This document shows positions 13,232-55,422 of a stretch of DNA of 64,000 nt, in pieces. The position numbers and the translations under genes are program-made. The DNA comes from Bispira polyomma (Eukaryota): NCBI GenBank assembly GCA_965649765.1, contig OZ287749.1:3658001-3722000 (forward strand), read 5' to 3'. Each line of letters begins with the position of its first letter. Positions within the stretch are counted from its first letter, which is position 1. The notes under the pieces were generated by a model that did not search any database, was not told where the DNA came from, and saw only the letters and a list, made by a program, of their open reading frames with translations.

Positions 13232-13819
13232 TCTCTGAAATGAGATTACTTGGCATGGCTAAATTTTGTGTTTCACAGAAGACATCTCAGTCGTTCTGCT
13301 CCCAGTTCATCACAATCCACATTCGTGGCATACAAAGCCTAACTCGCTCTATCGAACCAGTTCACTCTGTATATATTTCTAGTCAAGAATTTTCAGATGA
13401 CACAGAACGTTTCAGCCTATTCTTCAGATAGGCCATTGGCCAAAATTCCCAGATGCCAGATATTTCTCCTATATATAACTCTCTGTGTCGCTGTAAATAT
13501 CTCGAGAACTCCTCCTTCTCCTATATATACCTTTCCCTCAATCTCTGTATATATCTCTATACTAACTCTTACTCTATCTATCTACTTTAAGACAGCCATG
13601 TTTTCCGACGAGACTGTCAGCCAGAGTTCACAGATGACTTCGAGCTCTACAATTCTATTTCTTTGTATGTATATTTCCAGCCAGACAAGAACATCAGCCA
13701 GAGTTGTCAGATGAGCCTTAACTTCTCCTACACCTCATCCTATGTATAAACTCTCTCTATCTCTGTTTATATTTTCATATGGACATTAACTTTCACTCGC
13801 TCTATACTTCCAGCCAGCC

Positions 13820-14467
13820 ATGTCTTCAGACAAGACCATCAGCCAGAGTTCTCAGATGAGTCAGAGCTCCTCCTACTCATCCTCCTCTTCCAGCTCCTTC
13901 AGCTCCTCCAAGACCGTGAAGACCAGCAGTACAGTGAAAAGCATGAGCGTTAAGTCGTCCACTGCCTCGAGCTCTGTCAGCATCCGCTCAGCTGGTTCCA
14001 GCTTCGCCGACACCCGCAGCAAGGAGCTTGGCTACGACGTGGACAACAAGATGAAGGAACTGACCACCAAGATGGACAAAGAGATGGATGACGTGAAGAG
14101 GGAGTTCTTCAGGATGACCTCTCTGGAGAGTCTGGAGAGCGCCGACAAGCTGGTCAAGCTGGACAACTCCATGATGACTAAATACATCGATGACACAAAT
14201 AAGGATAAGCTCAAGTTCAACTTTGACGTGGACGAGTTTGAGTCCGAGAGCATCAGCGTGAAGGCAGTCGGCAACCAGGTGGAGGTTCATGCCAAGAAGA
14301 AGAGCAAGAAGGATGGGCAGGAGACCAGCGAGGAGTTTACCAAGGCCTACGAACTCCCAACAAGCGAGGCTATCGACCCCGCCACGGTCACATCCTCGTT
14401 CTACAAAGATGGTGTCTTGACGGTGGAATTACCACTCAATGCGGCTATTACAGAGAAGAAAGAATAA
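13820..14467 (+). CDS. Small heat-shock protein (HSP20/alpha-crystallin domain) with Ser-rich N-terminus, 215 aa
   Basis: GC-rich ORF with GCCATG start context, just after a 3' splice site (ctatacttccag). The C-terminal half reads as an alpha-crystallin domain: LKFNFDVDEFESESISVKAVGNQVEVHAK...EEFTKAYELP...VTSSFYKDGVLTVELP. AATAAA occurs at the stop and at about 14648 and 14709. Confidence 0.93.
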   Translation: MSSDKTISQSSQMSQSSSYSSSSSSSFSSSKTVKTSSTVKSMSVKSSTASSSVSIRSAGSSFADTRSKELGYDVDNKMKELTTKMDKEMDDVKREFFRMTSLESLESADKLVKLDNSMMTKYIDDTNKDKLKFNFDVDEFESESISVKAVGNQVEVHAKKKSKKDGQETSEEFTKAYELPTSEAIDPATVTSSFYKDGVLTVELPLNAAITEKKE

Positions 14468-14963: not shown

Positions 14964-15158
14964 TCACTGCCTATACACAAGAACTGGTACATGTGCATGA
15001 TGGATGACGTAGTCAGACACACTGCCTAATATGGTCCGGCGTACACTACCCATCCCACGAGTCGACATGATGATCATCTTACTGTGCAGGTCCTGGGCAG
15101 CTTTCACCAAGATCTCACCAGGTTTGTGACCATAAAGTGTCTTGTAGGTAACCTGAAT
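14964..15158 (-). CDS. USP-A coding exon 4 (terminal)
   Basis: Acceptor ttgtag; IQVTYKTLYGHKPGEILVKAAQDLHSKMIIMSTRGMGSVRRTILGSVSDYVIHHAHVPVLVYRQ*, a classic USP C-terminus. The four exons sum to 492 nt = 163 aa + stop. Confidence 0.95.
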   Translation of the reverse strand: MQVTYKTLYGHKPGEILVKAAQDLHSKMIIMSTRGMGSVRRTILGSVSDYVIHHAHVPVLVYRQ

Positions 15159-15776
15159 CTACAACAGACACCTTTCTACCATTGAAAGCAAAGAGAGTAT
15201 TATATAAAGATTGCATAACGTGCAATCTATTCTACTACACGTTTTAACATGACATATTGTGAAATAATATAGAGCAATATAGACAGCCAGATTTATTGGT
15301 GAAGGAAATCAGTACTATGAAGTAGCTGGCCAACTGTCCCACACAAAGGAATCAGTGGGATTTGATCCCTCACTGTCCTCAGAGGTCAGAGGCTAATGGT
15401 ATTAAAGTATAGTATATCCCCACTATGCCACTACAGTACTTGTTATTGACAATTACACTCTTGCAGTTCATCTGCTGTTTTAGTACAAAGTCTACAGTGA
15501 ATGCTATGCCTATTATATGTTGATCAATTCAGTGTATACCACTTTAGAGCTACTGTATATCCAGCCTTACTTTTTACCCCACCAAATATATGGCCAGGTT
15601 TTGTCAAAATAAACAGAGGTCCTGGCCTATCGACAACCAATGTCTGTGCATTTTATGTCCTAAGCCAAAATCATCCATGTACTTCCACCCTCGCCCTCAC
15701 CAAAATGAATTCACCCTCTCACCATCACCCCCACAAAAATAGTGTACCAACCCTTACCCCAAGTAGACACTCTTAC

Positions 15777-15883
15777 CCCCAGCTCCTCTGACAGCTGTTT
15801 ATACTTGGCCACCATATAGTCTGTCTCCTCTTTCTCTGCCTGTTTCATCTTCTCCCATTCTCCTGCCGGAAGTTTCATCCCCT
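15777..15883 (-). CDS. USP-A coding exon 3 (107 nt)
   Basis: Acceptor tttcag; (K)GMKLPAGEWEKMKQAEKEETDYMVAKYKQLSEELG; donor GTAAGA. Phases 1 to 0 fit both neighbouring exons. Confidence 0.88.
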
Positions 15884-16639
15884 CTGAAATTAGGTGACAC
15901 ACCTTCACTTACAGAGCGAAATCCATAAAACTTCTAGAGATTTCACTAGATCACTGATTACACAAATTAACTGTAACCTATTTACATATATATATACTGC
16001 TACCCTAATACTGTGCATTGTGAGCATAGTGGTGCAATATATATGGATATACCCAAGATAATGTCTGATTTCGCCTATTTTTCCCAGAAGTATATTTGTA
16101 TTTATTAAATGAATAACTCTTTTATTCACAATAAAATATCTACAATCTTATGCCTATATGAACATTGGCCATTGTCTGGCTAAGTTACATAGTTATTGTT
16201 TAAAAATGTCTGTATGTCCAATATTGTGCCCTGTTATGTCCATTTAGTGCAGGATGACAGTATAGGCTTTATATGTAAGCTTTGGTGACCACGAAATGCA
16301 CAAGAATGAAATTCAAAACTGGACCCTGTGAACAATTATCTGTGATTGTGGGTCAGACTGTGTGTATACAGTGGTTGGGATTGACGTAGAAGTTTTCTAT
16401 TAATGACGATGCTTTGATTTTGACTGACGACGAGGAACAGAGCGGTGACCATTTGCAAAACTTTGCCGATAACTCGGTCTAGAAATAAGTGTGAAAATGT
16501 AAGTGATTTTTGTAATGTTATGTAATGAAAAAAAATCCATAGTTTCAAAATTGCTGTACAAGTATTCTCTAAGTTTCACCATCTGTAGAGTTAATCGGTA
16601 GCACAGTACAGTTACATAATGGGGTTTACATTAAAAATG

Positions 16640-19400
16640 TGGAGTGTGTAGAAACCTTTAAAGAAAATAGGATAGTAAAGGTATGACTTTAAGTTTCTTC
16701 TGAAAGCACATAGGCTTGTTTGCTTGTGAATATCATTGGGCATTTTGTTCTATTGACAAAGAGCTGCACAAAAATCAACCTTCATTTCGGGGGGGGGGGG
16801 GGGGGGGGGGATAAAGTTACAAGTCAAAAGCCTTGATTTGTGATCCTAAGTACATTAGCTAACCAAAAGCACAATAGCTATGAAAGCAATTTAGTTTGAA
16901 GATGATGCAATATTGAACGGAAATCCAGTGTAGATCTTTGAGAAGATGAGTAATATACCAATGGGTATGAACTCTTCGATGAATAATGCGACAAGGGTAA
17001 TTTTAAACCACTTCCTGGATCTTTTGAAGATTAGCCTGACTGACACCATATAAGAGTGAGTAATAGTAATCCAATTGAATACTGACAAGTGCATTAGCCA
17101 CAATGACTGGAGTATCTAGACTGAGATGGAGATTTATTATCTTTCACTCCCTCATATAGTAGGGACAGGATCGGCAGACATTGGGGATATGGTGATTAAA
17201 ACAGTTAGTTGAATTAATAATAATAATAATATCCAGCAATATGATAACAAAGTGTAGGATAGGGTTTATACTAGTATAAATGAATGTGATAAGAAATGGT
17301 AGAGTAGGGCTCATACTAGTATAAATTAATGTGATAGGAAAGTGTAGGGTAGGGCTAATACCAGTATAAATGGATGTTATGGGAAAGTGTAGGGTAGGGC
17401 TCATACTAGTATAAACTAATGTGATAGGAAGGTGTAGGGTAGGGCTCATACTAGTATAAATTAATATGATAGGAAAGTGTAGGGTAGGGCTCATACTAGT
17501 ATAAATGAATGTGACAGGGAAGTGTAGGGCTCATACAAGTATAAATGAATGTGACAGGAAAGTGTAGGGTAGGGTTCATACTAGTATAAAAGAATGTCAT
17601 AGGAAGGTGTAGGGCTCATACTAGTATAAATTAATGTGATAGGAAAGTGTAGGGCTCATACTAGTATAAATAAATGTGATAGGAAGGTGTAGGGTAGGGC
17701 TCATACTAGTATAAATGAATGTGATAGGAAGGTGTAGGGTAGGGCTCATACTAGTATAAATGAATGTGATAGGAAAGTGTAGGGTAGGGCTCATACTAGT
17801 ATAAATGAATGTGATAGGAAAGTGTAGGGTAGGGCTCATACTAATATAAATGAATGTGATAGGAAAGTGTAGGGTAGGGCTCATACTTGTATAAATGAAT
17901 TTGATAGGAAAGTGTAGGGCTCATACTTGTATAAATTAATGTGATGGAAAAGTGTAGGGTAGGGCTCATACTAGTATAAATTAATGTGATAGGAAAGTGT
18001 AGGGTAGGGCCAATACTAGTATAAATAAATGCGATAGGTAAGTGTAGGGTAGGGCTCATACTAGTATAAATGAATATCATAGGAAAGTGTAGGGCTCATA
18101 CAAGTTTTCAGGAATGTGATAGAAAAGTAGCTTTTAAATTAATGTGATAGGAAGGTGTAGGGTAGGGCTCATACTAGTATAAATGAATGTAATAGTAAAG
18201 TGTAGGGTAGGGCTCATACTAGTATAAATTAATGTGATAGGAAAGTGTAGGGTAGGGCAAATACTAGTATAAATGAATGCGATAGGTAAGTGTAGGGTAG
18301 GGCTCATACTAGTATAAATGAATGTCATAGGAAAGTGTAGGGCTCATACAAGTTTTCAGGAATGTGATAGAAAAGTAGCTTTTCACTTTTCTTTGGGTTA
18401 TGGGAATAAATTTTGCTATGTCTCCTGATTAAGTTTCAGTGTATAAAAACTCATTGAAGCCCAAACAGGGTCAATACATGGTGACACCTCTTGGAGAGAG
18501 TAAACAATAATCGAAGAATTCAGAGCATAGGCATAAACTTGTGTGTCACCAGCATAAAAATTATAGATAACTATAAACTTAAAAATGACTTGACACAGAA
18601 GAGTGGTATAAAAGAGTAAAAAGTAATGGACCAAGAGCTGACTTTTGAGAAACACCATAAGGTAGATCAATGGTTTTGTAAGACGATCGTCCAATTTGAT
18701 TCTCCGTTTCTATCATAAAATATCAAATAATCCAATTTAAAACGGTGTAATCTAAGCAAAATCAATTTTTAGTTATGTGGTCGATGGTATCATATACCTC
18801 CAAGAGATCTAACGGAGTCAAAGCCTCAAAGTCATTTTTATCTTAAGCAGAAATGATGTCATTGTTAAGCAGACTGATATGTATGTTTGATTGACCCTGG
18901 TCGGAACTGTTATCACTAATTTAGCACTGCTTTATCAATCAGTTTTATAATTAAACTTTGATTGGATTCCGGGGGATAGTTTTTTAGTACGTTTTAGCAC
19001 ATCTATGTCAGACTTTTTAAAAAACCGACAAACATTGGCAGTCTTGAAACAAGTAGGGGGGCACTCTCCAGAAGGAGTAATCTGGTAGGAATAGGATCCA
19101 AGGCACAAGTGATCATGAAATGAGCTTGGTACATCTGGTGTCTGTTATAGTTTGGATATTTCTAAGGTATGTAACAGAATAATTGGGGCATGGAGCAACA
19201 TATGAACCAATGCTACTAAAACAAGATCTAATTAACTTAACTTTATCAGTAAAAAACCCCAAAGCATTTTTCAAGTCAGGCATATGAGTCGGATAGCTAA
19301 TCTGCAATGAATGTTCTTCATTGAATACTTCCAGCATTTTCTTTCATTATATTTTCATGAAATTAGGGTCTTTTTTACATTTGACCGTAATGGTTTTATA
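16640..19400 (-). mobile_element. Degraded L2-like LINE in USP-A intron 2, interrupted by a 45-bp minisatellite
   Basis: YAGDTQVY (degenerate YADDTQ), LKLN, and a VANALVS..LDY.YSLLYG segment that aligns to 59440-59600. Confidence 0.75.
17250..18385. repeat. 45-bp minisatellite, roughly 25 units
   Basis: Unit ctagtataaatgaatgtgataggaaagtgtagggtagggctcata, with 40-bp variants. Source of the spurious MSPTLHFPITFIYTS ORFs. Confidence 0.97.
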
Positions 19401-20694
19401 GTGGTTCAAGGCCAGTATATACTGTCATTTATTAGCAAGAATATATTTTTAATTATATTATCAATAGTTGGTCGAATATAAAAAAGATCTAATTTCTACG
19501 TAAACCAGAATGGGGTGATTGGCCAATGTAAATCTTGATCAGTTTATTGTAATGTAGAATCAAACCCCAAAGCCTCTTTGAAACTCTCATAAAAATTGTT
19601 TTACGCCCAAGGTTCTTTTAGATAAGGTACTTGCAGCTACTTGGGCAATGCCCTGCTAGAAACAACTTACATAAACATCATAATGTTCTTTTATGTACCC
19701 TTTATAATATGCTGTTATAACGTCCTCATCAATAGAATTACATAAGGTTTGATTTAGTGGAGAAACATTGTTAATAATTATGCAAAGAAGCCATTTGAAG
19801 GATCTTAACTATTCATTACTGGATGCCGAAAACCAAAAATGACCAAAATATCAGTGTTATACTGTAGCTTTGCTACGCAGTGGAGGACCAACAATGCTTG
19901 CTAAATGTGGAGCTAGGTAAATTCATTCACAACAGTATACACTCCAATAATCTACTAAGCCTAGCCATTAACCCAAGTAAGTTCATGTTTCCATGAAGGC
20001 AATATTCTGAGGCGATCAGTCGACGTCAATTTTATCGCTTTCATTGATTTTCACACAACAAATTGACATGCAAATCTATCCAACAGTGGGGTAACGACGT
20101 GTCCTTTAATATAGACACAAACTTCGCAGTTTTGAGCATTCAGAAGATCACTTGGTTGTGGACATTTTAATGGGGGAAAATTCCCAAATGATATGTGGTT
20201 CTATTTTTTTTACGTTTCTGTGGACAGATGACAAACCTTGTGTGACAAGTCTCTATTAGCTGCGATATTGCATGTGACGTATAACTGTAGAAGATGTCGA
20301 AATGGTGAATTTGTTGTCAAGAAAGATGCTCAATGTGTTTCATGTGAATCTGAAGTTAAATTTTAATTGTTTTAAATAGTGACCAATGTCGCCTGCAACC
20401 CCTTTAAACACACTTGCATATCAGAGAGATTTCACACAACCTTTTTTTACGCAAAAGATAAAACCGCATACAATTTTTCCTACCCCACAAATTGTGTGGT
20501 AAACAGCTGAAAACTGTGAAGTTGGTAACTTTCTCAATAAGGCTGTCGTTATACTTTTATTGGATGTATATGAATTTGTATTGTTTCACTATATGACCAG
20601 CATATGATATTCATAAATATCAATAGGCTTTATTACATTTCTTACCACTAACATTAACAAAATCCAATTAGGAATACTTCACGATGATTGTGCG

Positions 20695-20941
20695 TTTTTA
20701 CATTACCGTAACAGCAAACAACGTCTGTGGTAATAGCTCTACATACGGTAATATAGTTTTTACATTACCGTAACAGGACACAATGTTTGTGGTAATAGCT
20801 CTACGTACGGTAATATAGTTTTTACATTACCGTAATAGGAAACAACACCTGTGGTAATAGCTCTACTTACGGTAATATACGTTTTTACATTACAGTAACA
20901 GCACACAACGGCTGTGGTTATAGCTCTACGTACGGTAATAT
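20695..20941. repeat. 62-bp tandem repeat x4, each unit with an internal inverted repeat
   Basis: tttttacATTACCGTAacag...agctctacgTACGGTAATatag. Confidence 0.93.
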
Positions 20942-21000
20942 GAAAATATTGTTGGAAATCTCTACTAATAGACAATACACCATAAGGTGTATGTACTTAC

Positions 21001-21081
21001 TTGAGGTGGTGACTGTGGCCACTTCCGGTACATGGACTAGTATCACGTTGTGGGTGGGTTTGTGTGACGTCTTGGCATACC
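21001..21081 (-). CDS. USP-A coding exon 2 (81 nt)
   Basis: Acceptor cttacacag; GG completes Trp; (W)YAKTSHKPTHNVILVHVPEVATVTTS; donor GTAAGT. Contains the LVHV USP motif. Confidence 0.92.
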
Positions 21082-21394
21082 CTGTGTAAGTAAGACAGTA
21101 CATATAGTGTGAGGCATGTAGGTGTTATTACTACAAAAACAATGTCTACCTCCATAACTTTGTTGACCTGGACTTTACATATAAAGGACAATTATAAAAG
21201 CGTCCAAGTTCTACTATTGCTATATTCTTGTTGGTACATTCCTAAAATAAGGGTATTCTTAACACTATATTTGCAACATAGAAATCAAAACTCTCTGTTC
21301 TCATTTCACTATTCCTTACACTCCTACATTCTCTCAAGCGTCCCACATTTTCTGCATACAATTGTATATATGTGCATATTTTATATACCTCACA

Positions 21395-21810
21395 TTACCC
21401 ACACAGCCTCCAAATACACCCCCACCCCCTCCCATATTTTCCATACACCTGTCCTACTTTTTCCATACACTTTACCCACATTTTCCATACACCCTCCCAA
21501 CCTTTCCCAAAGACCCTCCCACATTTCCCATACACCCTCCAACATATTCCATACACCTTTCCTACATTTTCCACACCTTACTCACATTTTCCCTATATCA
21601 TCTTCACATTTCCAATTCACCTCCACACATTTTCCATACACCGTCCCCATATTTTTCCTATATTCTCCCCACATTTTCCCTATATCCTCCCCACATTTTC
21701 CCTATATTCTCCCTACATTTTCCCTATATCCTCCTCACATTTTCCACACACCCATCCCACATTTTCCACACACCCTACCCACATTTCCACACACCTTCCC
21801 CACATTTTAT
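21395..21810. repeat. C-rich ~21-bp degenerate tandem repeat in USP-A intron 1
   Basis: Repeats of cccacattttccatacac / ccctatatc. Confidence 0.9.
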
Positions 21811-21829
21811 GAATACCCCTGTCACTCAC

Positions 21830-21938
21830 ATTTCAAAGCCTCCTCTGCATTCTTACTCCTATCTACGGCCACTAGAATTGTAGCCTCGCCCTCCACTGGA
21901 GCAGCAGCGATACTCTCGTCACCTGGTGCTGTTGACAT
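21830..21938 (-). CDS. Universal stress protein (UspA family) gene USP-A, coding exon 1
   Basis: MSTAPGDESIAAAPVEGEATILVAVDRSKNAEEALK + T, then donor GTGAGT. ILVAVDxS is the USP beta-1 motif; phase-1 intron. Confidence 0.92.
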
Positions 21939-29279: not shown

Positions 29280-29790
29280 TGAGCCACGTCACGTGATTAA
29301 CGTACAAAACACCCTGTCGTCACGGCAACCATGTCTAAAACCGGTGAACAAACTGTTCTGTGTTGTTAACAGTATTACCAAGCACATTATGCTTTCCCCT
29401 GAACACAATTTTTTATTTCTCCTCACTTCCGCCACTATGCCAATAAACCACAATTTCCACACAGCATTTCTGATGAAGAAACAGTTAGGTTTTTTTTTCG
29501 TCTCCTCACAGAGTTTCCACCAACGCGCATGCGCTGGTAGTATTGATGTTTTTGTTGTTTGTTGAACAGAGGTTATTTAAACGGTATCGAGTGTGTGTTA
29601 AAACTATGTCTTCAGATGGAATAGTGTAACGGTCACGGCGGTACTACGTGAATATATGTACGTGCAGGGTGTACTGATGTAAATGATTGTGTTTACATGT
29701 TGAAGGCTATATCTACACGTGATCTGTCTTTATACCATATACATACGGTACATCAGTTCAACGACATTCATAACAGGGAGACGTGTATAA
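29280..29790 (+). promoter_or_regulatory. Promoter-like motif cluster upstream of USP-B
   Basis: Locally CpG-rich. CCACGTCACGTGAT at about 29284-29297, X-box-like GTCGTCACGGCAAC, ETS-like ACTTCCG, GCGCATGCGC at 29525-29534, and several ACGTG copies between 29645 and 29785. Confidence 0.5.
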
Positions 29791-30071
29791 AATTGCGTTT
29801 CTTTCACCAGTGCAAAGGATATATACCATCAATTTGTGTATTTTTTGGACAAAACAGTATATATATATATATATTTGGGAATAGTTTTTAGTCACAAAGA
29901 ATAAAGGGATATTTATAGTATAACTTATTGATTTGTTTTACATCTCCCTCCGTGGTGTTCCTGCAAATAAGTCTCCATAAACCGTGTAAAAGAACTATAC
30001 TCTTCCAATCACTCATTAATAGTGCTAGTATTACAGGAGCGTCCTGGAATCTGGATAATCACACAAATAAT

Positions 30072-30147
30072 ATGGCGGCCCCTGCTCCAGAGAGAAGCAT
30101 AGCTATAGCTGTGGATGCCAGCGAGCAAGCAGAGCACGCCTTTGACT
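30072..30147 (+). CDS. Universal stress protein gene USP-B, coding exon 1
   Basis: MAAPAPERSIAIAVDASEQAEHAFD + T, donor GTGAGT. Same intron position and phase as USP-A. Confidence 0.9.
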
Positions 30148-30191
30148 GTGAGTAGTATAGAGGGGGTGCTGGTATGTTGTAACAAGTGCCG

Positions 30192-30487
30192 GAGTAGTAT
30201 ATAGTGTGCTTTACATCCCCACCTTACACCACCAGAGTAGTATATAGTATGCTTGACACCCCCACCTTACACCACCAGAGTAGTATATACAGTACTTGAC
30301 ATCCCCACCTTACACCACCAGAGTAGTATATACAGTGCTTGACACTACCACCTTACACTTGTAGAATAGTATATCGTAGGCTTGACACCCCCACTTAACA
30401 CCACCAGAGTAGAATATAGTGGGCTTGACACTCCCACCTTACACCACAAAATTTGTATATAGTGTACTTGATACCCCCCATACACAA
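30192..30487. repeat. 43-bp minisatellite x7 just inside USP-B intron 1
   Basis: Unit gagtagtatatagtgtgcttgacacccccaccttacaccacca. Confidence 0.93.
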
Positions 30488-30613
30488 ATTGAGAAAGGGG
30501 GAGCAAAGGCTACTTCCTGGACAAGACATGGCTTCACAACAAAATCAAACATATAAACTTGTCCTGACACCAACTCGATTTCTCGATTTGATTGTGCAAT
30601 GTCTGTATGCATG

Positions 30614-31386
30614 TGTTACATATAAGGACATTGTGGTATGTTAAAGCACTCTGCTAGAGTGATCTATTTATACAATTGGGGAGACCCCTAAGCTTCTAGA
30701 AGCCAGTTCTATTTTGTTTCTGTTGTTATTAAAGTTGTGTTCATATGTATGACTCATCTCTGGAATGTTCTAGCCATTGCTTACATATTCTAGAGCCTTC
30801 TCCAGTAGTGGTATATATAAGGGTTGACAGCCTGGCCACAGACCAGAGTTAATTGAGTTGGGGTGCTATATGAACTGCTATACTGTGAAACATTTTATTT
30901 CTTTTCCTGTGGATATAAACTGATTACTACATATGTTTTTGTGGTGAACTCATTGGAGTGAACTAGATAAAAGTTGTGGATCTACCAGAGATTGGATTTA
31001 CTGCATATTGGATATTGTTTGCATCCTGGACTGGATAGCTTAGTTGTGCAGACTCTCTGGATATATACATTTTGTGTTCGTGGACACTGAACAGATAACA
31101 GGATACAGGCATTGTGTGGACATTGAGCGGATCTCAAGACAGATTACTGGATACAGTGGACAAACTTGTTTAATTGTTATTTATGTGGACAGGACTGTGG
31201 TCAGGTCAGATTGGTTTCATTATTGTATTATTGTGTGAACTATTAAGGGTATCTCAGTTGACTGTAATTCTGTAATTGTTATTTTATTTGTTAAATAAAT
31301 TTGTTAAGTGAAATTTTTTGTCTTTTCCTGTTACAACCTCCAAGCAACTGGTAATTGCTACCGCGCTTGCTCCCGTGACCGTAACA
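30614..31386 (+). repeat. 5' LTR of the Gmr1-like element (773 bp)
   Basis: TGTTAC...GTAACA inverted termini, TATATATAA at 30812-30820, AATAAA at 31294-31299, followed by the PBS. Confidence 0.85.
30691..30820 (+). promoter_or_regulatory. HSE-like repeats, AP-1 site and TATA box in the LTR
   Basis: TTCtaGAA at 30694-30701, TGACTCA at 30750-30756, GAAtgTTC at 30763-30770, TTCtaGAGccTTC at 30788-30800, TATA at 30812. Confidence 0.6.
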
Positions 31387-31393
31387 GGAAAAT

Positions 31394-31411
31394 TGGGGGC
31401 TTGTCCGGGAT
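31394..31411 (+). other. Primer binding site, tRNA-Pro
   Basis: TGGGGGCTTGTCCGGGAT, one mismatch from the canonical tRNA-Pro PBS TGGGGGCTCGTCCGGGAT. Confidence 0.9.
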
Positions 31412-31497: not shown

Positions 31498-32772
31498 ATG
31501 GCTAGTGCTAAAGAGTTTGTACAGTCACCATCTATTGAGGTTCTAGAAACATTTAAAAAAGATATTTTAATGCAGATAGCACAGGAATTACAGTTAAACG
31601 TGAAAAGGTCAACACGTAAACATGAACTGAAAAGGCTTATTGTTGAACAGTTAGTTGATGAGGACCTTTTGCATGATAATTGTTCAGAAGTGTATAAACC
31701 TCTGCCAATGGAACCTTCTGGGCAATTTGAGATCAGGCGATTAGAAATTGAAAGAGAGCTAAAACTTAAAGAACTTGAAGCTCAGCAACAAAGGCAAAAA
31801 GAAGAGCTTGAGGCTCAAAGGCGAAAAGAAGAGCTTGAGGCTCAAAGGTGAAAAGAAGAGCTCGAAGCTCAAAAATTTGAAAAAGAACTTGAGCTTAAGC
31901 ATGAAAGGGAAATGAAGGCTTTGGAACTCAATGCTCGCCAAATTGCCCATGAAGAGTCCATGGCAACCAAATTTGATTTGGATAAAAATATGCGACTGGT
32001 ACCACCTTTCAACGAGTCCGAAGTTGATAAATATTTTCAACACTTTGAACGAGTGGCTCAAAATTTGAAATGGCCCACAAACCAGTGGCTTTTATTGCTG
32101 CAAAGTGTTTTCAAAGGCAAAGCCCAAGAGGCATATACAGTTTTGCCAATTTCTGAATGTAGAGATTATGACTGTGAAAAATGCTATCTTGAAAGCATAT
32201 GAGTTGGTACCAGAAGCATATCGTCAAAAATTCAGAAATTATTGTAAGCAAGAAAATCAAACTTATGTTGAATTTGCCCATGAAAAAGAAGTGTACTTTG
32301 ACAGATGGTGTAGTTCTAGAGAAGTTGGTACAGACTTTGAAAAGCTTAGGCAAGTCATTTTCATTGAGGAGTTCAAAAGGGGTGTTCGTGATGACATCTG
32401 GATGAACAGAAAGTAGAAAATTTGCAAAAAGCAGCAGCTTATGCTGATGATTATGCGCTGACTCACAAGTCCACTTTTAACAAGAGTAAATCCTCTGGTC
32501 CCACAAAGAAGTTTTATCCTGAAGTAGGAAAGAAATTAGAAAATGTAGCTCCAGAAAAGAGTTCAGATAAGTTTCAAACAACAAATCAGACAATGAGTAA
32601 GGATAGGAAACCTAGGTCCTTTGCTCCTGTGTGCCATTACTGTAAAAAACCTGGGCATGTTATGTCTGACTGTTGGCTCGGAGAGAAAAGGAGGCAACAC
32701 CTAATGCCTTTATTTCTAGCAAATCTAATTGGCGTTCAAATCCCAATAGAACAGAATCTAGTATTGGTTTAG
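31498..32772 (+). pseudogene. gag: Gmr1-like gag (capsid/SCAN-related region and CCHC knuckle), disrupted
   Basis: ATG at 31498. CGA>TGA stop at 31849 inside a 27-bp tandem repeat, then frameshifts. Motifs GKAQEAY, ILKAYELVPEAYRQKFR and CHYCKKPGHVMSDC. Confidence 0.88.
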
Positions 32773-34534
32773 ACAAGTCTGAGATTAGGAATGAGTTCAA
32801 ACCTTTTGTGTCTGAGGGTTTTGTATCCTTAGATAGTAGTTCCAGTCAAGTTCCCATTAGGATACTAAGAGACACTGGGGCTACTCAGTCACTACTTTTA
32901 GAAGGTGTATTGCCATTGAGTGTTAGCACTTCTACTGGTGAGAGTATTATTGCTCAAGGTATTGAAGGAGGTTGTGTAAACATTCCCTTACATAAGGTCA
33001 ACTTAGTATCAGACTTAGTTACTGGTTTTGTTGTGGTGGGTACCAGGCCCACTTTACCCATTAAAGGGGTGTCTTTGCTGTTGGGAAATGATTTGGCAGG
33101 TGGCAAGGTGGTTGCTGATCCTAAGGTTACTTCTAAGCCGATCACTTTGGTTAGCACTGAGAAATTAGAAGAGGTTATTCCTGGTATTTTTCCCTCCTGT
33201 GCTGTGACTCCAGCTATGGCTAAAAAAGCCCAAGAAGAACCAAAAGATTGTAAACAATCTACAGATGTCTTAGTTGATTTATCAGATACATTCTTGAACA
33301 ACTGTGACCATGATGTGCAAAATCATAGTGATATTGACCCTAAAGGTAGGAAAGATTCTGAGAAACAAGACCAATTTGATGATCCAGATGTATCACTCTC
33401 AAAATCAAAATTAATTGTAGAGCAGGAAAATGACCCTGAATTAGCCCCTCTATTCAAATTGGTGTTACCACCAGTAGAGCTAGATAAGGTCCCAGTAGGC
33501 TATTATATCAGAAATGGTGTGCTTATGCGAAAGTGGAGGCCGCCAAGTGTCCCTACCTCTGAGAACTGGTCAATACTTCATCAGATTGTATTACCAAAAA
33601 TGTACCAAAATGATGTATTGAGGTTAGCTCATGAGTCTCCAATGGGTGGCCATTTAGGCATCAACAAAACCTATGGCAAAATAACCAAGCATTTCTACTG
33701 GCCTCAAATCCGGCGCTGTGTGGCAGAATTTTGTAAAACTTGTCACATTTGTCAAGTTGTAGGGAAACCAAACCAAAAGATTCCTGTAGCTCCTCTAAAA
33801 CCCATTCCAGCATTTGAGGAACCATTCAGCAAGGTGATAATTGATTGTGTAGGCCCCTTACCAAAGACTAAATCCAGAAACCAATATCTCCTAACCATTA
33901 TGTGTGCCTCAACCAGATTCCCTGAAGCCATACCTTTGACCAACATGACAGCCCCGAAAATTTCGAAAGCTTTAATCAATTTCTTTACTTTAGTTGGCTT
34001 ACCGAAGGAGATCCAGTCAGATCAAGGGTCAAATTTTATGTCAGGATTATTTCAGCAAGTTGTGTTTCAGTTAGGTGCAGTTAGGGAATCAGTGCCTTTG
34101 AGTTGGTGTTTGGTCATTCAGTCCGTGGTCCTCTTAAGTTGTTGAAAGAAAATTGGTTATCCGAGAACTCTAAGAGCCTAAACCTGTTAGATTATGTTTC
34201 AAAGTTTAGGAGTAGGCTGAAAAAGGCTTGTGAGCTAGCGCAACAAAATTTGAAACATTCTCAGTCAAAAATGAAAATGCTTTATGATAGAAAGTCACAA
34301 AACCGTGTTTTTAAACCGGGAGACAAGGTTTTAGTACTATTACCTGTCCAGGGGAACACGTTACAGGCCAGATATCATGGGCCATACAAAGTGTTAAAGA
34401 GAGTAGGTGATTTGGATTATGTCATTGAAACCCCGGACAGAAGGAAGTCAACCCAACTGTGTCATGTAAATATGGTAAAACCATACTTTGAAAGGGGTGT
34501 GACAAAGCCTGTCATGGCTACTGACTGTGTGTAA
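32673..34534 (+). pseudogene. pol: Gmr1-like pol: protease and integrase, internally deleted
   Basis: LRDTGATQS; AHESPMGGHLG...CKTCHIC zinc finger; IDCVGP and SDQGSNF; GPY module (YHGPYKV). The segment carrying the third catalytic residue is missing near 34080. Confidence 0.9.
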
Positions 34535-36018
34535 TGTGGAAAATGACAACAATCAGGAGCATGAAGCATGGGGTGACACTCCTGATGTTGAAGTTAAATG
34601 TAAAATCAGGTTTGAGTAATTCAGAGATTCTTGCTGATTTGGAAACCAAACTGAATCATGTACCTCCAGATAAGAGAATCCCACTTAGTGAGTTACTCTT
34701 GAAATATAAGTCAGTATTTCCTGATGCCCCTAACAGGACCAATGTACTCATGCATGATGTTGATGTTGGCAATGCCATTCCGGTCAAACAGCACCCATAT
34801 CGTGTAAACCCGATTAAACTTGAAAAATTAAGAAAAGAAGTGCAATACATGTTGGACAAAGATATAATTGAACCAAGTCAAAGTAGTTGGGCATCTCCTT
34901 GTGTTTTGGTCCCGAAGCCTGATGGTTCTATCAGATATTGCACAGACTATAGAAAGGTTAATGTTTTGAGTAAAACCGATTCATTTCCTATCCCAAGAAT
35001 GGAAGACTGTATTGATCGGATTGGTAAAGCCAAATATATCACAAAATGTGACTTATTGAAAGGTTACTCGTGTGTACCTCTTACTGAACGGGCAAAAGAA
35101 ATATCAGCATTTGTAACTCCCGATGGTCTGTATCAGTACAAGGTAATGCCATTTGGCATGAAAAATTCCCAAGCTACATTTCAGAGACTAGAAGGGATTG
35201 AAGTGTATGTGGATGATATTGTCATCTTTAGTGATACTTGGGAAGAACATTTAAAAAGACTTGAACAAGTTCTATTTCAGCTCAAGCAAGCCAACCTTAC
35301 TGTGAATCTATCGAAAAGTGACTTTGTAAAAGCAAAGGTTGTTTACTTAGGGCATGTAGTTGGTCATGGAGTTGTGACACCAATTAAAGCTAAAGTTGAA
35401 AGCATCATTGACTATCCCATTCCTAGAAATAAGAAAAGTTTAATGAGGTTCCTGGGAATGTCAGGTTATTATAGAAAATTTTGTAAAAATTTCTCAGATG
35501 TTACTGCTCCACTGACTGAGCTCTTAAAAAAAACGTAAAATATCACTGGTCTGAAGCTTGTCAAAAAACATTTGACAAAGTAAAAAATATTCTCTGTTCG
35601 GAGCCTGTACTAACTGCTGCAGACTTTAGTAGGCCATTCCAGCTAGCTGTGGATGCCAGTGATGTTGGGGCAGGTGCAGTTTTACTGCAGACTGATGATG
35701 AAGATATTGAACATCCCATTTGTTATTTTTCAAAAAAATTTAACGTACATCAAAAGAATTACTCTACAATAGAAAAGGAATGTTTAGCCCTCATTTTAGC
35801 CATTAAACACTTTGATATATATATATATATCTTCATCATCAAAACCAACTATTGTGTACACAGATCACAACCCTTTAGTATTCTTGTACAAAATGAAAAA
35901 CAAAAACAGACGTTTATTGAATTGGAGTTTGGTTTTGCAAGAATACAGTTTACAAATAGAGCATGTTAAAGGAAAGGATAACATTTGTGCTGATGCTCTA
36001 TCCAGAAGTTGTAGTTAA
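34534..36018 (+). pseudogene. pol: Gmr1-like pol: reverse transcriptase and RNase H, frameshifted
   Basis: CTDYRKVN, DLLKGY, MPFGMKNS, YVDD, YLGH; RNase H DASDVG, EKECLA, TDHNPL, ADALSR. Frameshifts at about 35535 and at a (TA)n run near 35820. Confidence 0.92.
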
Positions 36019-36168
36019 AGGTTATTTTGTATGTTAGTAACTGAAAAGTAAACTTGTAAAACTTAGATGTTTACTTATGGATATTTTATCCTCTATTCGG
36101 GTTGTTTATTTATATTTATCATATACTAAACATTGTACATCTGTTAATTGTCTAAAACATAAATGTTT

Positions 36169-48981: not shown

Positions 48982-49062
48982 GGTACCTGGAGTCCATCCA
49001 CAAGGACAACAACTATCTGATTCTGATCCATGTGCCAGAACTGCTGGACGGAGAGAGAAACA
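48982..49062 (+). CDS. USP-B coding exon 2 (81 nt)
   Basis: Acceptor tatttttccag; (W)YLESIHKDNNYLILIHVPELLDGERN + A; donor GTGAGT. Same length and phases as USP-A exon 2. Confidence 0.9.
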
Positions 49063-49139
49063 GTGAGTATATTATTCTTATTATTATTACTGGGCATGTA
49101 TAGAGCACCAAATTGATGAGAACATCCTCTAAGGCACTG

Positions 49140-49500
49140 ATATCCAAAAAGGGTAGGTCCATGGGCAGCCAAATGGATGTTACCAAAAAGCATCCACCAG
49201 GGAAGAAAAGTTTTCAGATGGCTTCTGAAATCAGGGATTGTATCCTGTAATTTGACAGTCTGTGGGAGCTTCTTTCATTCAACAGGAGCCTCGACAGCAA
49301 AGCAGGACCTGCCGATTTATCGATTTGGTCGGGTTGAGGAAACAGAGCGGTGGTTTCCCCGGGTAAGACTGCTAGGCTTAATGAGTGAGGATTAATAAGG
49401 AGGTTCGTTGAGTTTGATAGCTTCGAACACAGGAAGCTTGTATTAAGAAAAGAATACGCTTAGTAGCCAGTAAAGTTTGTATATGATGACACACGGCTAA
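49140..49500 (-). mobile_element. L2-like LINE 3' fragment, split by the DIRS (continues at about 55658-55730)
   Basis: Reverse strand aligns to the L2 at 59620-60000 (LHWL.., GR..FAV.AP..W..LP, F...LKT.L motifs). Confidence 0.8.
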
Positions 49501-49518
49501 TTTTATAGCGAAAATTGC

Positions 49519-49710
49519 CCTTACCATTTCCTAACAATAGCTTACGTGTTGGAGCCGTCCAATTCACTGGCCAACGAAGATAAACGTTTTATGCTACCCT
49601 AAGCATAACCAGTGAATTTAAGGTCTGTGTAGTGGACAATGGTCAGTCCCCCCCTTAATAATAAGTCACGTGGGTAGCCAATAGGCGGTAACCTTCATCT
49701 TTTTTTGTTG
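49519..49710 (+). repeat. DIRS left inverted terminal repeat (shared part)
   Basis: Reverse complement of 55423-55615 with two differences seen (C7 vs C8 run, one T/A). Contains GTCACGTG and CCAAT. Confidence 0.95.
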
Positions 49711-49770
49711 GCCGTCATTGTGTATGGACGTACTTTGGAAAATTTTGGAAATATTTTATACTTTGGAATT

Positions 49771-51582
49771 ATGGCTCAAGTAGAAGTTAGTAAAAAGGGG
49801 CAAAGAAGAAGCGTTTATTGTGGTCACTATATGGCAGATTCTGATTTACACAAATACTGTTTGAAGTGTAGAGAGTCTTCTAAGGGTGAGGATTCGTGTG
49901 TCACGGGAACTTCTGCTTGTCAAATATGCGAAATTTCCGAGGAAACGAAGCGTAGTACGAGATCAAAGAAATCTAAAACTAAGAAGGAGATCTCAGCTTC
50001 TTTATCAGTAGCCCCATCGAATCAGCTACCTACAGCTTCAGAGGTTATTGACGACTCCTTGTTGGATGAAGAAGACGCGGTTGCAAGAGCTCGTTCTTTG
50101 TCCATCCCAGGCCCGTCTTCTACTGAACAAAAACTGAATTTAATACTCATGCAAATCTCAGACTTCTCTACCAGACTCAGATCTGTGGAGAATCTGAAGG
50201 ATGTAGCGAGTAATGTCACTAGCAATGGGGTGGATCAGAGTATAACTGCTGACCACGGTTTAACCGTTGATAAGGAGACGAATGTTGTCAAGGAAACGTC
50301 TCGGGGAGATTCTAAATCTCAAAGGCTTAGTTCTGGCTTGTCTACCCGTTCTTCTCGCCCCGCAAACTCCACAGCTAGTCTGTCAGAATTTTCTACGACT
50401 ACTGAGGCAGTTCCAGACAGTTTTTTCTTCAGGAAAAGGAGGCATTCTCCTTCATCAGAGGGTGAACTATCAGATGGTACTGAGAGTCAGGAGAAGGACA
50501 GAGATCAGGAGAGTTCGGATAAAAGACCAAAGTATTTAGACACTATAGACACGTTGAAGAAATGGCTAAATTTAGAGGTTGACAATGTAGACCCTTTAGT
50601 ACCTCCTTCAGTGTTTTCTACCAGAAACCTAGACAAAAGAGTGTCACAAGCCTCTTTGGCCTTGCCGCCGGCTACTGGAATTGTTGACTTGTGGAAGTAC
50701 AAGGAATGTACTGCATCTGGATCTTCCACATCTGACAAACAAACTTCTCGACAACATGCTCCTTTATCTAAGGCACAATTTCTACCATTTGCGAGGCCGA
50801 ATATGAAATGGTACCAGTTGTCTCCACAGCCTTTTTCAGTGTCAGCCCCCAGAGTTCAGGATGGTTTTAAAAATATTGCTACTCTCCCATACCAACCCCC
50901 TACTACTGTATCTGCTCCACTTAAGAGTTACCTGCTCTGGGAAACAGTTAACAGGGAGAATCTTCAGATTCTGAATCATATCTTTTGGTTCAAAAACGCT
51001 GTGGAGAAGGCTTCTGCTGAGATGGGAGTTGAATTGGAAAAGATTAAGTCATCGGAGTCTCAAGAAGACATTGTTCAGAGCTTGGATTACCTTCAAAACT
51101 GTATTCACTTACAAAACTCTGTAATGGCTTGTATGGGCAAGTCATTGGACGATGTACTGGATTCGACCATGACTTTAGCTTCAAACCTACTCTTAAACAG
51201 AAGGGACCATTACCTTAAAATGTGTAACAGGAAGGTAACAGATCAGGACTTAACTGCCTTAAGAAATGCATCGCTCACACAAAAAGAACTATTTTTGCCT
51301 AAAGTTTTAGCTGAGGTAGAGCAGAACTTTATCAAGTGGTCTCAGGTCAGCAGGGAATCAAGAGAACCTGCTTTTAAGAGGCAAAACAGACAAGGTTCTA
51401 CCTCAACAAATTCTGATTCTAGACAGGAATATTATGGAAACAATCACAATAGATATCAGAATGCAGCTTTTAAGTCTAACTCTTTTCGTCCCAACAAAGG
51501 TCAGAATGAGTCGACAAAAAGACAAGGATACCCTACTTCCAGGGGTGCTGCCAGAGGTGGTAGAGGTGGAAGGAGGAAGTGA
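49771..51582 (+). CDS. gag: DIRS ORF1, gag-like (603 aa from the first ATG)
   Basis: Intact ORF. N-terminal Cys/His cluster CGH...DLHKYCLKC...C...CQIC, Ser-rich middle, RGG-rich basic C-terminus. Confidence 0.88.
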   Translation: MAQVEVSKKGQRRSVYCGHYMADSDLHKYCLKCRESSKGEDSCVTGTSACQICEISEETKRSTRSKKSKTKKEISASLSVAPSNQLPTASEVIDDSLLDEEDAVARARSLSIPGPSSTEQKLNLILMQISDFSTRLRSVENLKDVASNVTSNGVDQSITADHGLTVDKETNVVKETSRGDSKSQRLSSGLSTRSSRPANSTASLSEFSTTTEAVPDSFFFRKRRHSPSSEGELSDGTESQEKDRDQESSDKRPKYLDTIDTLKKWLNLEVDNVDPLVPPSVFSTRNLDKRVSQASLALPPATGIVDLWKYKECTASGSSTSDKQTSRQHAPLSKAQFLPFARPNMKWYQLSPQPFSVSAPRVQDGFKNIATLPYQPPTTVSAPLKSYLLWETVNRENLQILNHIFWFKNAVEKASAEMGVELEKIKSSESQEDIVQSLDYLQNCIHLQNSVMACMGKSLDDVLDSTMTLASNLLLNRRDHYLKMCNRKVTDQDLTALRNASLTQKELFLPKVLAEVEQNFIKWSQVSRESREPAFKRQNRQGSTSTNSDSRQEYYGNNHNRYQNAAFKSNSFRPNKGQNESTKRQGYPTSRGAARGGRGGRRK

Positions 51583-53644
51583 CTTGCTGAAGGTAAGACC
51601 CATAATTCCTGGAAGTCGTCTCAAAGGCTTCTGGCAAGTATGGGCAGATTTAAAAGCTCATCCGAGAATTGTCCGGATTCTGAAGGAAGGATATTGCCTG
51701 CCTTTCAAAAATTTGCCTCCTCTGACAAATTTTCCTTTAATAAAAAGCTATTACACAAATTCGCTGAAGCAAGCTGTTCTCGAAGAGGCTGTGCTTCAGA
51801 TGCTTCAAAAGCGGGCAATATCCCCGGTTCAGAAACCGAACTCTCTGGGTTTCTACAGTCGGCTTTTTCTAGTTCCCAAACCGGAAGCGAAATGGCGACC
51901 AGTGATCGATTTGAGTATGGTAAACAAATTTCTCATCGTTCCTACTTTCAAAATGGAAACTGCAGAGGTAATTCGTGCATCGTTACAAAAAGGCGAATGG
52001 GTAGCAAGCATAGATCTCACAGATGCTTACTTCCATGTACCAATTCATCAAAAATCTCAAAAATTCCTGCGTTTCAATGTAGGCGACAAGTCCTACCAGT
52101 TCACTGCACTTCCCTTCGGTATCGCTTCGGCTCCTCTCGAGTTCACTCGGATTGTAAGGGAAGTAAAACTCATTGCTTTATCCAGAGGTATTCGAATTCA
52201 CCAGTACATCGACGACTGGTTACTTCGATCAAAGACAAGAGAAGCTTGCTCTCAAGATATGCTCAGCTTGCTTCAGCTTATTCGGTCTCTAGGTTGGATA
52301 GTCAACCTCAAAAAGTCAGATTTGAATCCAACGCAACAGACAGATTTCTTAGGCTATCGATTCGATCTTCAAAGAGGGCTCGTTTTTCCGACCCAAAAGA
52401 AGATTCAAAAGTTAATTCAATCGGCAGGTTCCCTTTGCGATTGTCGGTTCACAACACCAAGGAAGCTCATGTCCCTCATAGGGGTCATGGCTTCTTTGGA
52501 AAAGATGGTACCACTGGGCAGGATTCACATGAGACCTTTTCAGTGGTTCCTCAGGTCGAGTTGGCGATTTCCCCAATCTCTAGACATCTAAATTGCGGTC
52601 GATCAAATACTCAAACATCACCTTCAGTGGTGGTTGAGTCTAGACAACCTCACAAAGGGTTCTCCTTTGCATCCTCTAGAACACAATGTCCTTCTATTCA
52701 CGGATGCATCGGAGAAAGGCTGGGGTGCCCACCTCAAAGACTTAAAAGCCTGGGGGGTTTGGCAGCCTTCAGAAAGAGGTTTGCATATCAATATTTTAGA
52801 GCTAAAGGCTGTGTTTTTGGCTCTAAAGTATTTTCAAAAAGAAGTTATGGGGCATATGGTCCTCATATCTTCCGACAACTCAACAGTCGTGTCGTACCTC
52901 AACAAGCAAGGGGGTACTCACTCTCTAGAGTTGTGTGTCCTGACCTGGAGGATTATGGCTTGGGCAAATGCCAGAGGAATCCAAATCAGGGCAAAACACA
53001 TTCCAGGGAGTCTGAATGTTATAGCAGACTCTCTGTCCAGGGTGGACAAGACCATTCAGACCGAGTGGTCTTTACATCCTCAAGTGTTCAGAAGGATTTG
53101 TCAAACTTGGTACACCCCAATGGTGGACATGTTTGCGACAAATCTAAACAGGAAGCTTCCAATGTACATTTCCCCTGTCCCAGACAATCAGGCCTGGGAA
53201 ATCGATGCATTGAGCATATCCTGGGAGGCTCTGGACGGCTATGCCTTTGGTCCAGTGGCAATCATCCCAAAGTTGGTACAAAAGATGGTCACCTACAGGT
53301 GCAGCATGATTGTGATAGCACCAGGGTGGCCAGGGATGTCGTGGTTTTGGGACCTGGTCGATCTGTCGACCAGACCTCCACTCCGACTTCCCCTGTGGCC
53401 AAAGTTGTTAAAGCAGCCATTCAGGAACAGATTCCATCAGAATCTGGAATTTCTGAATCTGCATGTGTGGCACCTGGATTCCAGATTCAAGAAACCAGGG
53501 GATTCTCTCAGGAGGTGGCAGACAGAATTAAGGCACCTCAGAGAGCATCCTCAAGGAAGGTCTATGAATCAAGGTGGTCCATTTTTCAGAAATGGTGCAG
53601 AGAGAGTAAGGTGGACTTCTCAAAGCCTTCTATCTCTACCATAG
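51434..53644 (+). pseudogene. pol: DIRS RT-RNase H-methyltransferase ORF, split by one in-frame TAA (52589-52591)
   Basis: ORFs 51434-52591 and 52634-53644 share a frame. RT motifs: IDLTDAYFH, LPFG, YIDD. RNase H: FTDAS, HINILEL, SDN, ADSLSR. MT-like: VDMFAT...YAFGP...IAPGWP. Confidence 0.92.
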
Positions 53645-54540
53645 CTGATTTTCTCATTTACCTGTTTAGAGAAAAAGATCTCAAACCTTCTACAATAGCT
53701 GGCTATAGAACTGCTATTGCAGATGCTTTGGGTTCATCAGGGGAAGCTGTGTCCAAAAGTCTAGACTTGAATAGACTTTTGGCCAGTTTCCATAGAGACA
53801 AACCAGCAGCTAATCGGTCAATTCCTAGTTGGGATCTGTCTCTTGTATTACTTACTCTCACTAAGGCTCCCTTTGAACCCTTAGGTAAGGCCTCTTTGAA
53901 ACTCTTGACCTTTAAGACGGTTTTTCTTATGGCCTTAGCCTCAGGAAGGAGAAGGAGTGAAATCCATTCTTGGACTTTTAACTCCTTCAGTAGGAAAGAT
54001 GACTGGTCAGAGGTGACTTTTTGCCCATCTCCAGCCTTTTTGGCTAAGAATCAGCTGGCTTCAGATGGTCCTTTGACTATACAGCCAGTGGTGATTCCAG
54101 CTTTGAAACCTACTCTAGATCCTTCATTAATTGAGGATAAGTCACTATGCCCTGTTAGATCTCTCAGATACTACCTTGACAGGACTAAGGGTTTGAGGAA
54201 AGGTAAGAACCTTCTGTTCATAGCAATTAAGGAAGGTTTTACTAAGGATATCTCTAGGGTGACTGTATCCTCTTGGATTAAACAGACTGTGATTCTCGCT
54301 TATCAAGTATCCGATAAGGAGACTCAACAAGTTACACAGGTAAAGGCCCATGATGTTAGGTCTATGGCGGCTTCTATGGCCTTTAGAGGCGGAGTGGCTC
54401 TAGATGAGATTTTGTCATCTTGTTACTGGAGATCTCACTCGACCTTTACAAATTTTTATCTTAAGGATGTGTGCTGGCACAATGGGGACATTATCAAGAT
54501 AGGTCCTGTTGTAGCGGCTCAGCATATTGTAAATCTTTAA
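51640..54540 (+). CDS. DIRS tyrosine recombinase ORF with long N-terminal region overlapping RT/RH/MT
   Basis: C-terminal ~340 aa: integrase N-terminal-like region (YESRWSIFQKWC...TIAGYRTAI) and catalytic motifs ASGRRRSE, LAKN, HDVR, W and FTNFYL. Confidence 0.93.
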   Translation: MGRFKSSSENCPDSEGRILPAFQKFASSDKFSFNKKLLHKFAEASCSRRGCASDASKAGNIPGSETELSGFLQSAFSSSQTGSEMATSDRFEYGKQISHRSYFQNGNCRGNSCIVTKRRMGSKHRSHRCLLPCTNSSKISKIPAFQCRRQVLPVHCTSLRYRFGSSRVHSDCKGSKTHCFIQRYSNSPVHRRLVTSIKDKRSLLSRYAQLASAYSVSRLDSQPQKVRFESNATDRFLRLSIRSSKRARFSDPKEDSKVNSIGRFPLRLSVHNTKEAHVPHRGHGFFGKDGTTGQDSHETFSVVPQVELAISPISRHLNCGRSNTQTSPSVVVESRQPHKGFSFASSRTQCPSIHGCIGERLGCPPQRLKSLGGLAAFRKRFAYQYFRAKGCVFGSKVFSKRSYGAYGPHIFRQLNSRVVPQQARGYSLSRVVCPDLEDYGLGKCQRNPNQGKTHSRESECYSRLSVQGGQDHSDRVVFTSSSVQKDLSNLVHPNGGHVCDKSKQEASNVHFPCPRQSGLGNRCIEHILGGSGRLCLWSSGNHPKVGTKDGHLQVQHDCDSTRVARDVVVLGPGRSVDQTSTPTSPVAKVVKAAIQEQIPSESGISESACVAPGFQIQETRGFSQEVADRIKAPQRASSRKVYESRWSIFQKWCRESKVDFSKPSISTIADFLIYLFREKDLKPSTIAGYRTAIADALGSSGEAVSKSLDLNRLLASFHRDKPAANRSIPSWDLSLVLLTLTKAPFEPLGKASLKLLTFKTVFLMALASGRRRSEIHSWTFNSFSRKDDWSEVTFCPSPAFLAKNQLASDGPLTIQPVVIPALKPTLDPSLIEDKSLCPVRSLRYYLDRTKGLRKGKNLLFIAIKEGFTKDISRVTVSSWIKQTVILAYQVSDKETQQVTQVKAHDVRSMAASMAFRGGVALDEILSSCYWRSHSTFTNFYLKDVCWHNGDIIKIGPVVAAQHIVNL

Positions 54541-54548
54541 GTAAGTCT

Positions 54549-54838
54549 AGACTTATTCTGGGTACATTTAGTTCAAGAATACGTCTTTCATATGTGGTCA
54601 TTGTAAAGCTGTCTGAAATAAGTGCTTTTTCATATGATATTTGGGAATATAGACTTATTCTGTGTGCAAATGAATTTTCAAGAATACGTTCTTTGATATA
54701 TAGTCATAGGGAAATTTCAGGAATAGTTTGTTTTCATATGATTTTGTGAGTGTAAACCTGTTCTCTGATCAAGAATATGTTTCTCTGATATGTGGTCATT
54801 GTAAAATTTTCTGCAATATGTGGTTTTTCATATGACTT
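54549..54838 (+). repeat. Three diverged ~102-bp tandem repeats in the DIRS 3' region
   Basis: Recurrent agacttattctg...tcaagaatacgt...gtcat...tttcatatga, starting near 54549, 54651 and 54754. Confidence 0.75.
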
Positions 54839-55367: not shown

Positions 55368-55422
55368 GGAAAGTCCCTCCCTACCTTCCCCGCAAGTTAA
55401 GGATTCATTTAAGTCTTTCTTG

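Follow-up and report, generated by a model that had tools for sequence, protein, structure and literature searches.

The 64-kb stretch of DNA analysed here (hereafter the window, G000:C2:3658001-3722000) carries the long terminal repeat (LTR) of a Ty3 retrotransposon within the first intron of USP-B, a universal-stress-protein (USP) gene, and this locus raises the question of whether the LTR holds a heat-responsive promoter, whether such a promoter belongs to the whole family of the element, and what it could mean for the host gene. An initial annotation had proposed that an AP-1 site, several arrays of heat shock element (HSE) units and a TATA box together form a stress-inducible promoter of a Gmr1-like family, lying inside a stress-gene cluster.

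The window copy is a 3'-truncated, broken Gmr1-like Ty3 retrotransposon in USP-B intron 1. Its 773-bp LTR (30614..31386, + strand, TGTTAC...GTAACA) falls into subfamily A of a Gmr1-like family with a high copy number, is 97.3% identical to its nearest copies and is assigned as the 5' LTR because a primer-binding site comes next (31394..31411, + strand, directly 3' of the LTR). This site is presumably of the tRNA-Pro type; a search for tRNA genes found none. The internal region holds a broken gag-pol in eight frame pieces (31499..36018, + strand), with a SCAN domain, a CCHC knuckle, a protease-like motif, integrase, RT and RNase H, and no env was found in it. Indeed, domain profiles match integrase families at 32670-34531, RT at 34525-35535 and RNase H at 35520-35966, which places the integrase before the RT, in the order PR-IN-RT-RH, and the capsid domain of gag is of the SCAN type (PF02023, E 6.5e-7, 29.5 bits for a cut-off of 27). 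In the accessible part of a recent preprint, Gmr1-like elements are described with a SCAN gag and the order PR-IN-RT-RH (bioRxiv 10.1101/2025.03.03.638093), and the window element resembles them in its SCAN domain, its CCHC knuckle and an integrase preceding RT and RNase H. The initial annotation of a Gmr1-like family in an invertebrate is borne out.

At its end (36019..36085, + strand) the element is truncated, with ~125 bp of internal sequence and the whole 3' LTR missing: likeness to other copies ends at 36085, ~125 nt before the expected start of the 3' LTR. No second LTR was found within the 64-kb window or 30 kb of its flanks, and displacement of the 3' LTR by a nested insertion was rejected on this ground. 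At the level of the family, two LTRs, a primer-binding site, a purine tract before the 3' LTRs and target-site duplications are all present; the duplications measure 4 bp (8 cases) or 5 bp (6 cases) at solo LTRs, among 67 full LTRs, both lengths occurring within one family. The solo LTRs with mixed 4-bp and 5-bp duplications fall among loci L026-L101.

Upstream of the TATA box of the LTR (30812..30819, + strand), the motifs lie where they had been placed, namely a distal two-unit HSE core TTCtaGAA (30694..30701, 118 nt upstream of the TATA box and kept in both subfamilies), an AP-1-type site ATGACTCAT (30749..30757), the two-unit core GAAtgTTC (array 2, 30763) and TTCtaGAGccTTC (array 3, 30788-30800), with the claimed gap of 11 nt between the end of array 3 and the TATA box. 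It had also been stated that a perfect three-unit HSE is absent from all three arrays; this is so, the best match being 8 of 9 positions in array 3. The HSE is nevertheless stronger than the initial annotation held, because arrays 2 and 3, which lie 20 nt apart, keep the same phase and join into a single nine-unit run (30758..30800). Read in 5-nt steps from 30758, its units are CTC, GAA, TTC, GCC, TGC, ACA, TTC, GAG and TTC, and the key G or C is retained in eight of the nine. Within this run, at 30760, stands a complete CTnGAAnnTTCnAG box, which we take to be the Pelham box consensus and which occurs only there in the 64-kb window. With a score of 23.2 it is the top of the 64-kb window (next, 16.8), a value equalled by none of 1000 shuffles, by one of 1000 in a repeat and by one of 82 window tiles, on a simple three-base-unit log-odds model that was devised after the sequence was seen and is not a published HSF matrix. 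The two perfect two-unit cores, taken on their own, are mildly above chance (34 of 1000 shuffles). Transcription is predicted to start near 30840-30845.

The family to which this LTR belongs is large and young. Exact 18-20-mer counts over the genome surveyed (1.035 Gb) gave at least 4,468 LTR copies: 2,025 LTRs of subfamily A with the array form of the window copy, 46 further ones of this subfamily with a perfect three-unit HSE, and 2,397 of subfamily B (exact-mer count), A and B differing by ~7%. From the 11 close pairs among the first 42 LTRs listed, this amounts to at least ~3,300 insertions, or one per ~314 kb. The two LTRs of a pair are 97.4-99.0% alike in the five of 12 pairs that are comparable, and many of the 150 integrase matches scored lie in frames that stay open for >1,500 codons.

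The 14-bp box CTnGAAnnTTCnAG is present in 52 of the 56 rows of subfamily A and in 23 of the 24 rows of subfamily B. Since at 93-97% identity box conservation by itself says little, variants were counted: those common to at least four of 82 copies affect none of the 19 core sites vs 35 of the 173 remaining sites of U3, the 35 including the two spacer bases of array 2 (Fisher p = 0.018), which is modest support, because the core set was chosen post hoc, as was the rule of 50 nt before the TATA box, and the sample is partly array-2-selected (copies among L032-L061 were taken through a pattern holding array 2, which biases them toward its conservation). In subfamily B, one extra base in array 3 shifts the third unit out of phase, and the run scores 14.5 (9 of 1000 shuffles). 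A perfect three-unit HSE in subfamily B, hinted at by a gap-free view of the alignment, was ruled out once the inserted bases were displayed. The putative HSE-TATA promoter is accordingly a family-wide feature, in which an HSE-like array above chance stands 5' of the TATA box and is conserved among copies.

The conservation that had been expected of all the motifs extends to the HSE cores and not to the AP-1 site. Indeed, ATGACTCAT, the only 9-mer of its kind in the 64-kb window, is private to the window copy, where two adjacent bases differ from the other copies; its exact context occurs once in the genome vs 1,104 times with the usual bases, and TGASTCA is found nowhere in the LTR in any of the 82 aligned copies. 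An AP-1 subfamily with other flanking bases was considered and rejected (56 loose matches vs 42 in the control); among 30 loose matches fetched, one belongs to the family and is the window copy, 26 others being judged as matched strings only. A motif unconserved in the family is what the initial annotation had itself named as speaking against its proposal, and AP-1 as a part of the family promoter was not confirmed. The site would have arisen in the window copy alone, after insertion, and its two bases are known from the assembled sequence and not from raw reads. Its gain occurred in 10 of 200,000 neutral simulations, a rate that applies to a motif picked post hoc from many and to a two-base change that may be one event. 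In the window copy, the AP-1 site is an oddity without known role.

The HSP70-family genes of the host served as a control for the HSE-TATA layout. Four of seven upstream regions have a perfect HSE ~10 nt before the TATA box and distal cores 80-105 nt further up, and these HSEs score 14.4 on the scale used for the LTR run; no such promoter was found within the 1.5 kb examined in the other three regions. The two-cluster layout of the LTR, with its distal core 118 nt and its proximal array 11 nt from the TATA box, matches the four HSP70 promoters, which together with the family-wide cores upholds the HSE-TATA unit as the putative promoter of the family. The idea that the LTR took its HSE from an HSP70 promoter was rejected, the best similarity being non-significant (E 0.1-2.7). 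An off-phase 13-nt spacing is seen in all four HSP70 promoters, and one HSP70 distal element (L358:1169-1188) shares with array 3 of subfamily B a 13-nt repeat of TTCTAG-type cores; the L358 element and L081 agree at 16 of 20 bases (E 0.91, non-significant).

On these grounds, the promoter of the family is probably driven by HSF, the LTR array likely binding the host heat shock factor, and heat is likely to switch the family on. HSF trimers would load onto the run at 30758-30800, aided by the distal core, and transcription would start ~30 nt past the TATA box; by analogy with flatworm LTR elements, heat or protein stress of the host could then result in a burst of family RNA, the window copy being a broken passenger in a USP intron. 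The features directly established are the LTR anatomy, the domain order, the copy numbers, the phase of the motifs, their conservation across copies and the likeness to HSP70 promoters. If the family is heat-driven, its thousands of young copies and two HSE-phase subfamilies offer a natural test of array geometry against heat response and copy gain.

An HSF-driven family promoter could also go together with harm to USP-B by the window copy, the sense LTR shortening the USP-B RNA through its poly(A) signal and through promoter competition. Intronic LTRs in sense orientation often cut host RNA short, and the AATAAA signal of the LTR (31294..31299, + strand and sense to USP-B, present in 70 of 82 copies) lies 1.1 kb into intron 1. 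The gene is composed of coding exon 1 (30072..30147, + strand, donor GT at 30148), exon 2 (48982..49064, + strand) and a last exon outside the window (G000:C2:3733132-3733317), and all three exons found keep open frames, which counts against such harm; we regard it as rather unlikely, and it is compatible with HSF-driven transcription of the family and not opposed to it.

An explanation that does compete with HSF control is that short TTCTAG-type duplications in U3 generated the arrays as by-products, or that another factor binds them, in a family that is not heat-driven. TCTAG does repeat several times there, with periods of 13-20 nt, and two of the findings that count against HSF control fit this explanation as well: the perfect three-unit form is rare (46 LTRs vs 2,025 with the form of the window copy), and subfamily B, although it has lost the phase of array 3, is at least as numerous. 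A third such finding comes from distant relatives, three of seven families being devoid of the motif. Chance duplication accounts less readily for arrays sitting immediately before the TATA box, for the two-cluster layout common to HSP70 promoters, for change limited to spacer bases and for the recurrence of the motif in LTRs that do not align, and we consider the by-product explanation unlikely.

The relatives comprise 45 metagenome loci and one locus from a viral collection, which yielded seven distinct families with a scorable LTR, the LTR being absent or too short to score at the remaining loci. The integrases of these seven families are 61-73% identical to that of the window element. In four of them (L111, L112/L180, L114 and L117; integrase 63-68%) an HSE core lies 15-43 nt ahead of the TATA box, with a second cluster further upstream (1-3 of 1000 shuffles each), and the LTRs of L111 and L114 carry perfect three-unit HSEs. 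No HSE core was found within 50 nt before the TATA box in L105, L118 and L131, the first of which (73%) is nearer to the window element than any other of the seven. None of the seven LTRs aligns with the window LTR, nor do the four positive ones align with one another, and a motif kept in unalignable LTRs points to selection on it. In two other families of the same genome that are also tRNA-Pro-primed (gag 22-30% identical), no HSE core was found. In FastTree trees, which contain the homologues found here only and whose weak inner support does not separate ancestry from recurrence, the positives form three lineages (the window family; L111/L112/L114/L180; L117) interspersed with negatives.

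It is possible, though rather doubtful, that the SCAN-gag, integrase-first Gmr1 elements of marine animals inherited an HSP70-style HSE-TATA promoter from an early common ancestor and retained it through LTR turnover, instead of acquiring it several times, and that in this worm the trait has given rise to more than 4,400 heat-shock promoters. If this were true, such a number would suffice to remodel the heat response and to link transposition with warming. The named relatives of the element are from Amphiura, Ptychodera, Holothuria, Pinctada, Paramuricea and Pristis, and recurrence in marine relatives makes ancestral versus recurrent origin testable with public genomes and with heat-stress RNA sets already available for corals, bivalves and echinoderms; this lineage-wide recurrence is the lead most worth pursuing. 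Among the loci fetched after pattern scans of viral and prokaryotic collections, only L180 encodes the element, and further scans yielded no additional relative. Furthermore, head-to-tail Gmr1-like arrays sharing single LTRs, with a period of ~5.8-6.0 kb, were observed at L106-L111 and L128, at L105 and at L112, and an array of the same type lies in the host genome (G000 C4 78183016-78195540).

Heat-induced LTR elements bearing HSEs are already known in a flatworm. According to the accessible part of a study of Macrostomum lignano, four HSE-bearing Ty3 families (Mlig-id115, Mag; id36 and id55, CsRN1; id38, Gmr1/Osvaldo) rise ~250-fold on heat and HSE mutation abolishes the response, two of six HSE-bearing families, both copia, are unresponsive to heat, and experimentally validated HSE-driven LTR activation is limited to ONSEN and Macrostomum (PMC12801592). 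As far as the same part of that article goes, the two cases are alike in that invertebrate Ty3 elements have HSEs upstream of the LTR TATA box and a proposed HSF-driven heat activation; the Macrostomum families have perfect three-unit HSEs, 4-20 copies and a measured induction, whereas in the family described here, for which induction is predicted, the integrase comes first, gag is of the SCAN type, and the LTR, 773 bp long, occurs in at least 4,468 copies and holds a long, imperfect array. The strict HSE pattern given there would miss the window copy. Since id38 is annotated with the standard domain order PR-RT-RH-IN (338-bp LTR) in the portion of the PMC12801592 supplement available, it represents a lineage different from the window family. 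ONSEN (Ty1/copia, Arabidopsis) is similar in that HSEs of its LTR recruit the host HSF, as related in the available part of PMC12801592, and it differs in superfamily and kingdom, and in that binding and transposition are shown there. In Caenorhabditis, as the accessible part of PMC6927752 describes, Helitrons with HSEs likewise form a repeat family that spreads many HSEs across an animal genome; these are DNA transposons, and the rewiring of neighbouring genes was studied there. The accessible parts of PMC8556966 and PMC2900285 make no mention of HSEs in LTRs, and no report of an HSE promoter in Gmr1 elements of the integrase-first type or in LTRs of annelids was found in the literature searched, which was that outside subscription journals. 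What is new here is the HSE in the integrase-first Gmr1 lineage and in an annelid-like host, and possibly also the lineage-wide reach of the HSE promoter.

As regards the position of the insertion, the LTR starts at 30614, that is 466 nt past the USP-B donor GT at 30148 and on the same strand, exactly as annotated. The "stress-gene cluster" consists of one small heat-shock protein (HSP20) coding frame (13820..14467, + strand) and two divergent USP genes, USP-B and USP-A (14970..21938, - strand; exon 1 21938-21830, exon 2 21081-21001, last exon ~15158-14970), in a genome with 20 USP matches. In a protein atlas the small heat-shock protein matches HSP20 clusters only, and six of its 54 homologues carry a species name, all six of which we take to be annelids, so that the host, too, is likely an annelid. 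An 8/9 three-unit HSE-like array lies at 13382-13394, ~440 nt before its start codon. At the density of the family, a copy is expected by chance with a probability of 0.18 per 64-kb window, of 0.13 for the USP-B span and of 0.47-0.94 for any of the 20 USP loci (assumed spans 10-45 kb), and placement in a USP gene is unremarkable because there is about one insertion per 314 kb. A special placement in this cluster was not supported, and the place of the element in a stress gene is probably due to chance.

As the initial annotation had suggested, the host could in principle have co-opted the LTR as a stress promoter or enhancer, the HSE and the gained AP-1 site driving USP-B or RNAs spliced to its exon 2. 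The sense orientation so close to exon 1 (chance ~0.016 for a sense insertion <500 nt from exon 1 at any of 20 USP loci), the rarity of the AP-1 gain, the absence of an HSE core within 1.5 kb upstream of the USP-B ATG and the loss of the 3' LTR, which could allow RNA to read through, fit such a role. So do an ATG and a weak splice donor in the LTR (31183..31210, + strand; GT at 31205, 7/9 consensus), which fit the phase of exon 2 and are in frame on paper, and the clustering of six of the 14 bases rare among 56 subfamily-A copies in 60 bp of the promoter. Co-option is nonetheless very improbable, given that ~3,300 insertions make a hit in some USP gene likely, that the spliced product would lose the 25 residues of exon 1, presumably the conserved start of the USP domain, that the donor and ATG are family-wide (the stretch is identical in 52 of 82 copies) and preceded by two further ATGs, that two of the six bases in this cluster are found jointly in other copies as well, that both the 60-bp interval and the AP-1 motif were selected after the fact, and that the copy is young. 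The link to USP would matter only if a chimeric RNA were found.

Several minor observations concern the USP genes and the rest of the window. Minisatellites (43-bp and 22-bp units) lie directly 3' of the exon 1 donor in both USP genes (30146-30489 and 21409-21829). The three sequencing runs compared cover introns evenly and behave as DNA. In one of them, X3, a contig across USP-B exon 1 (29400-30242) has a depth of 8.4 vs 16-19 for other single-copy pieces, and this halved depth may reflect two alleles near the insertion. A GCGCATGCGC palindrome, which we assume to be NRF1-like, is located within 29500-29560, ~540 nt 5' of the start codon of USP-B, and may act in the promoter of the two divergent USP genes. 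USP-B intron 2 contains a DIRS-like element (49499-55661) with inverted terminal repeats 99% alike (49519-49710 and 55423-55615) and long open frames in which RT, RNase H and, weakly, a recombinase are matched; its 3' region holds, within a short repeat, two of the three perfect three-unit HSE patterns of the window (54672 and 54711). Finally, a fragment at 8054-8395 matches the Pox_A32 packaging ATPase family (E 1.7e-4) and is perhaps a Polinton remnant.
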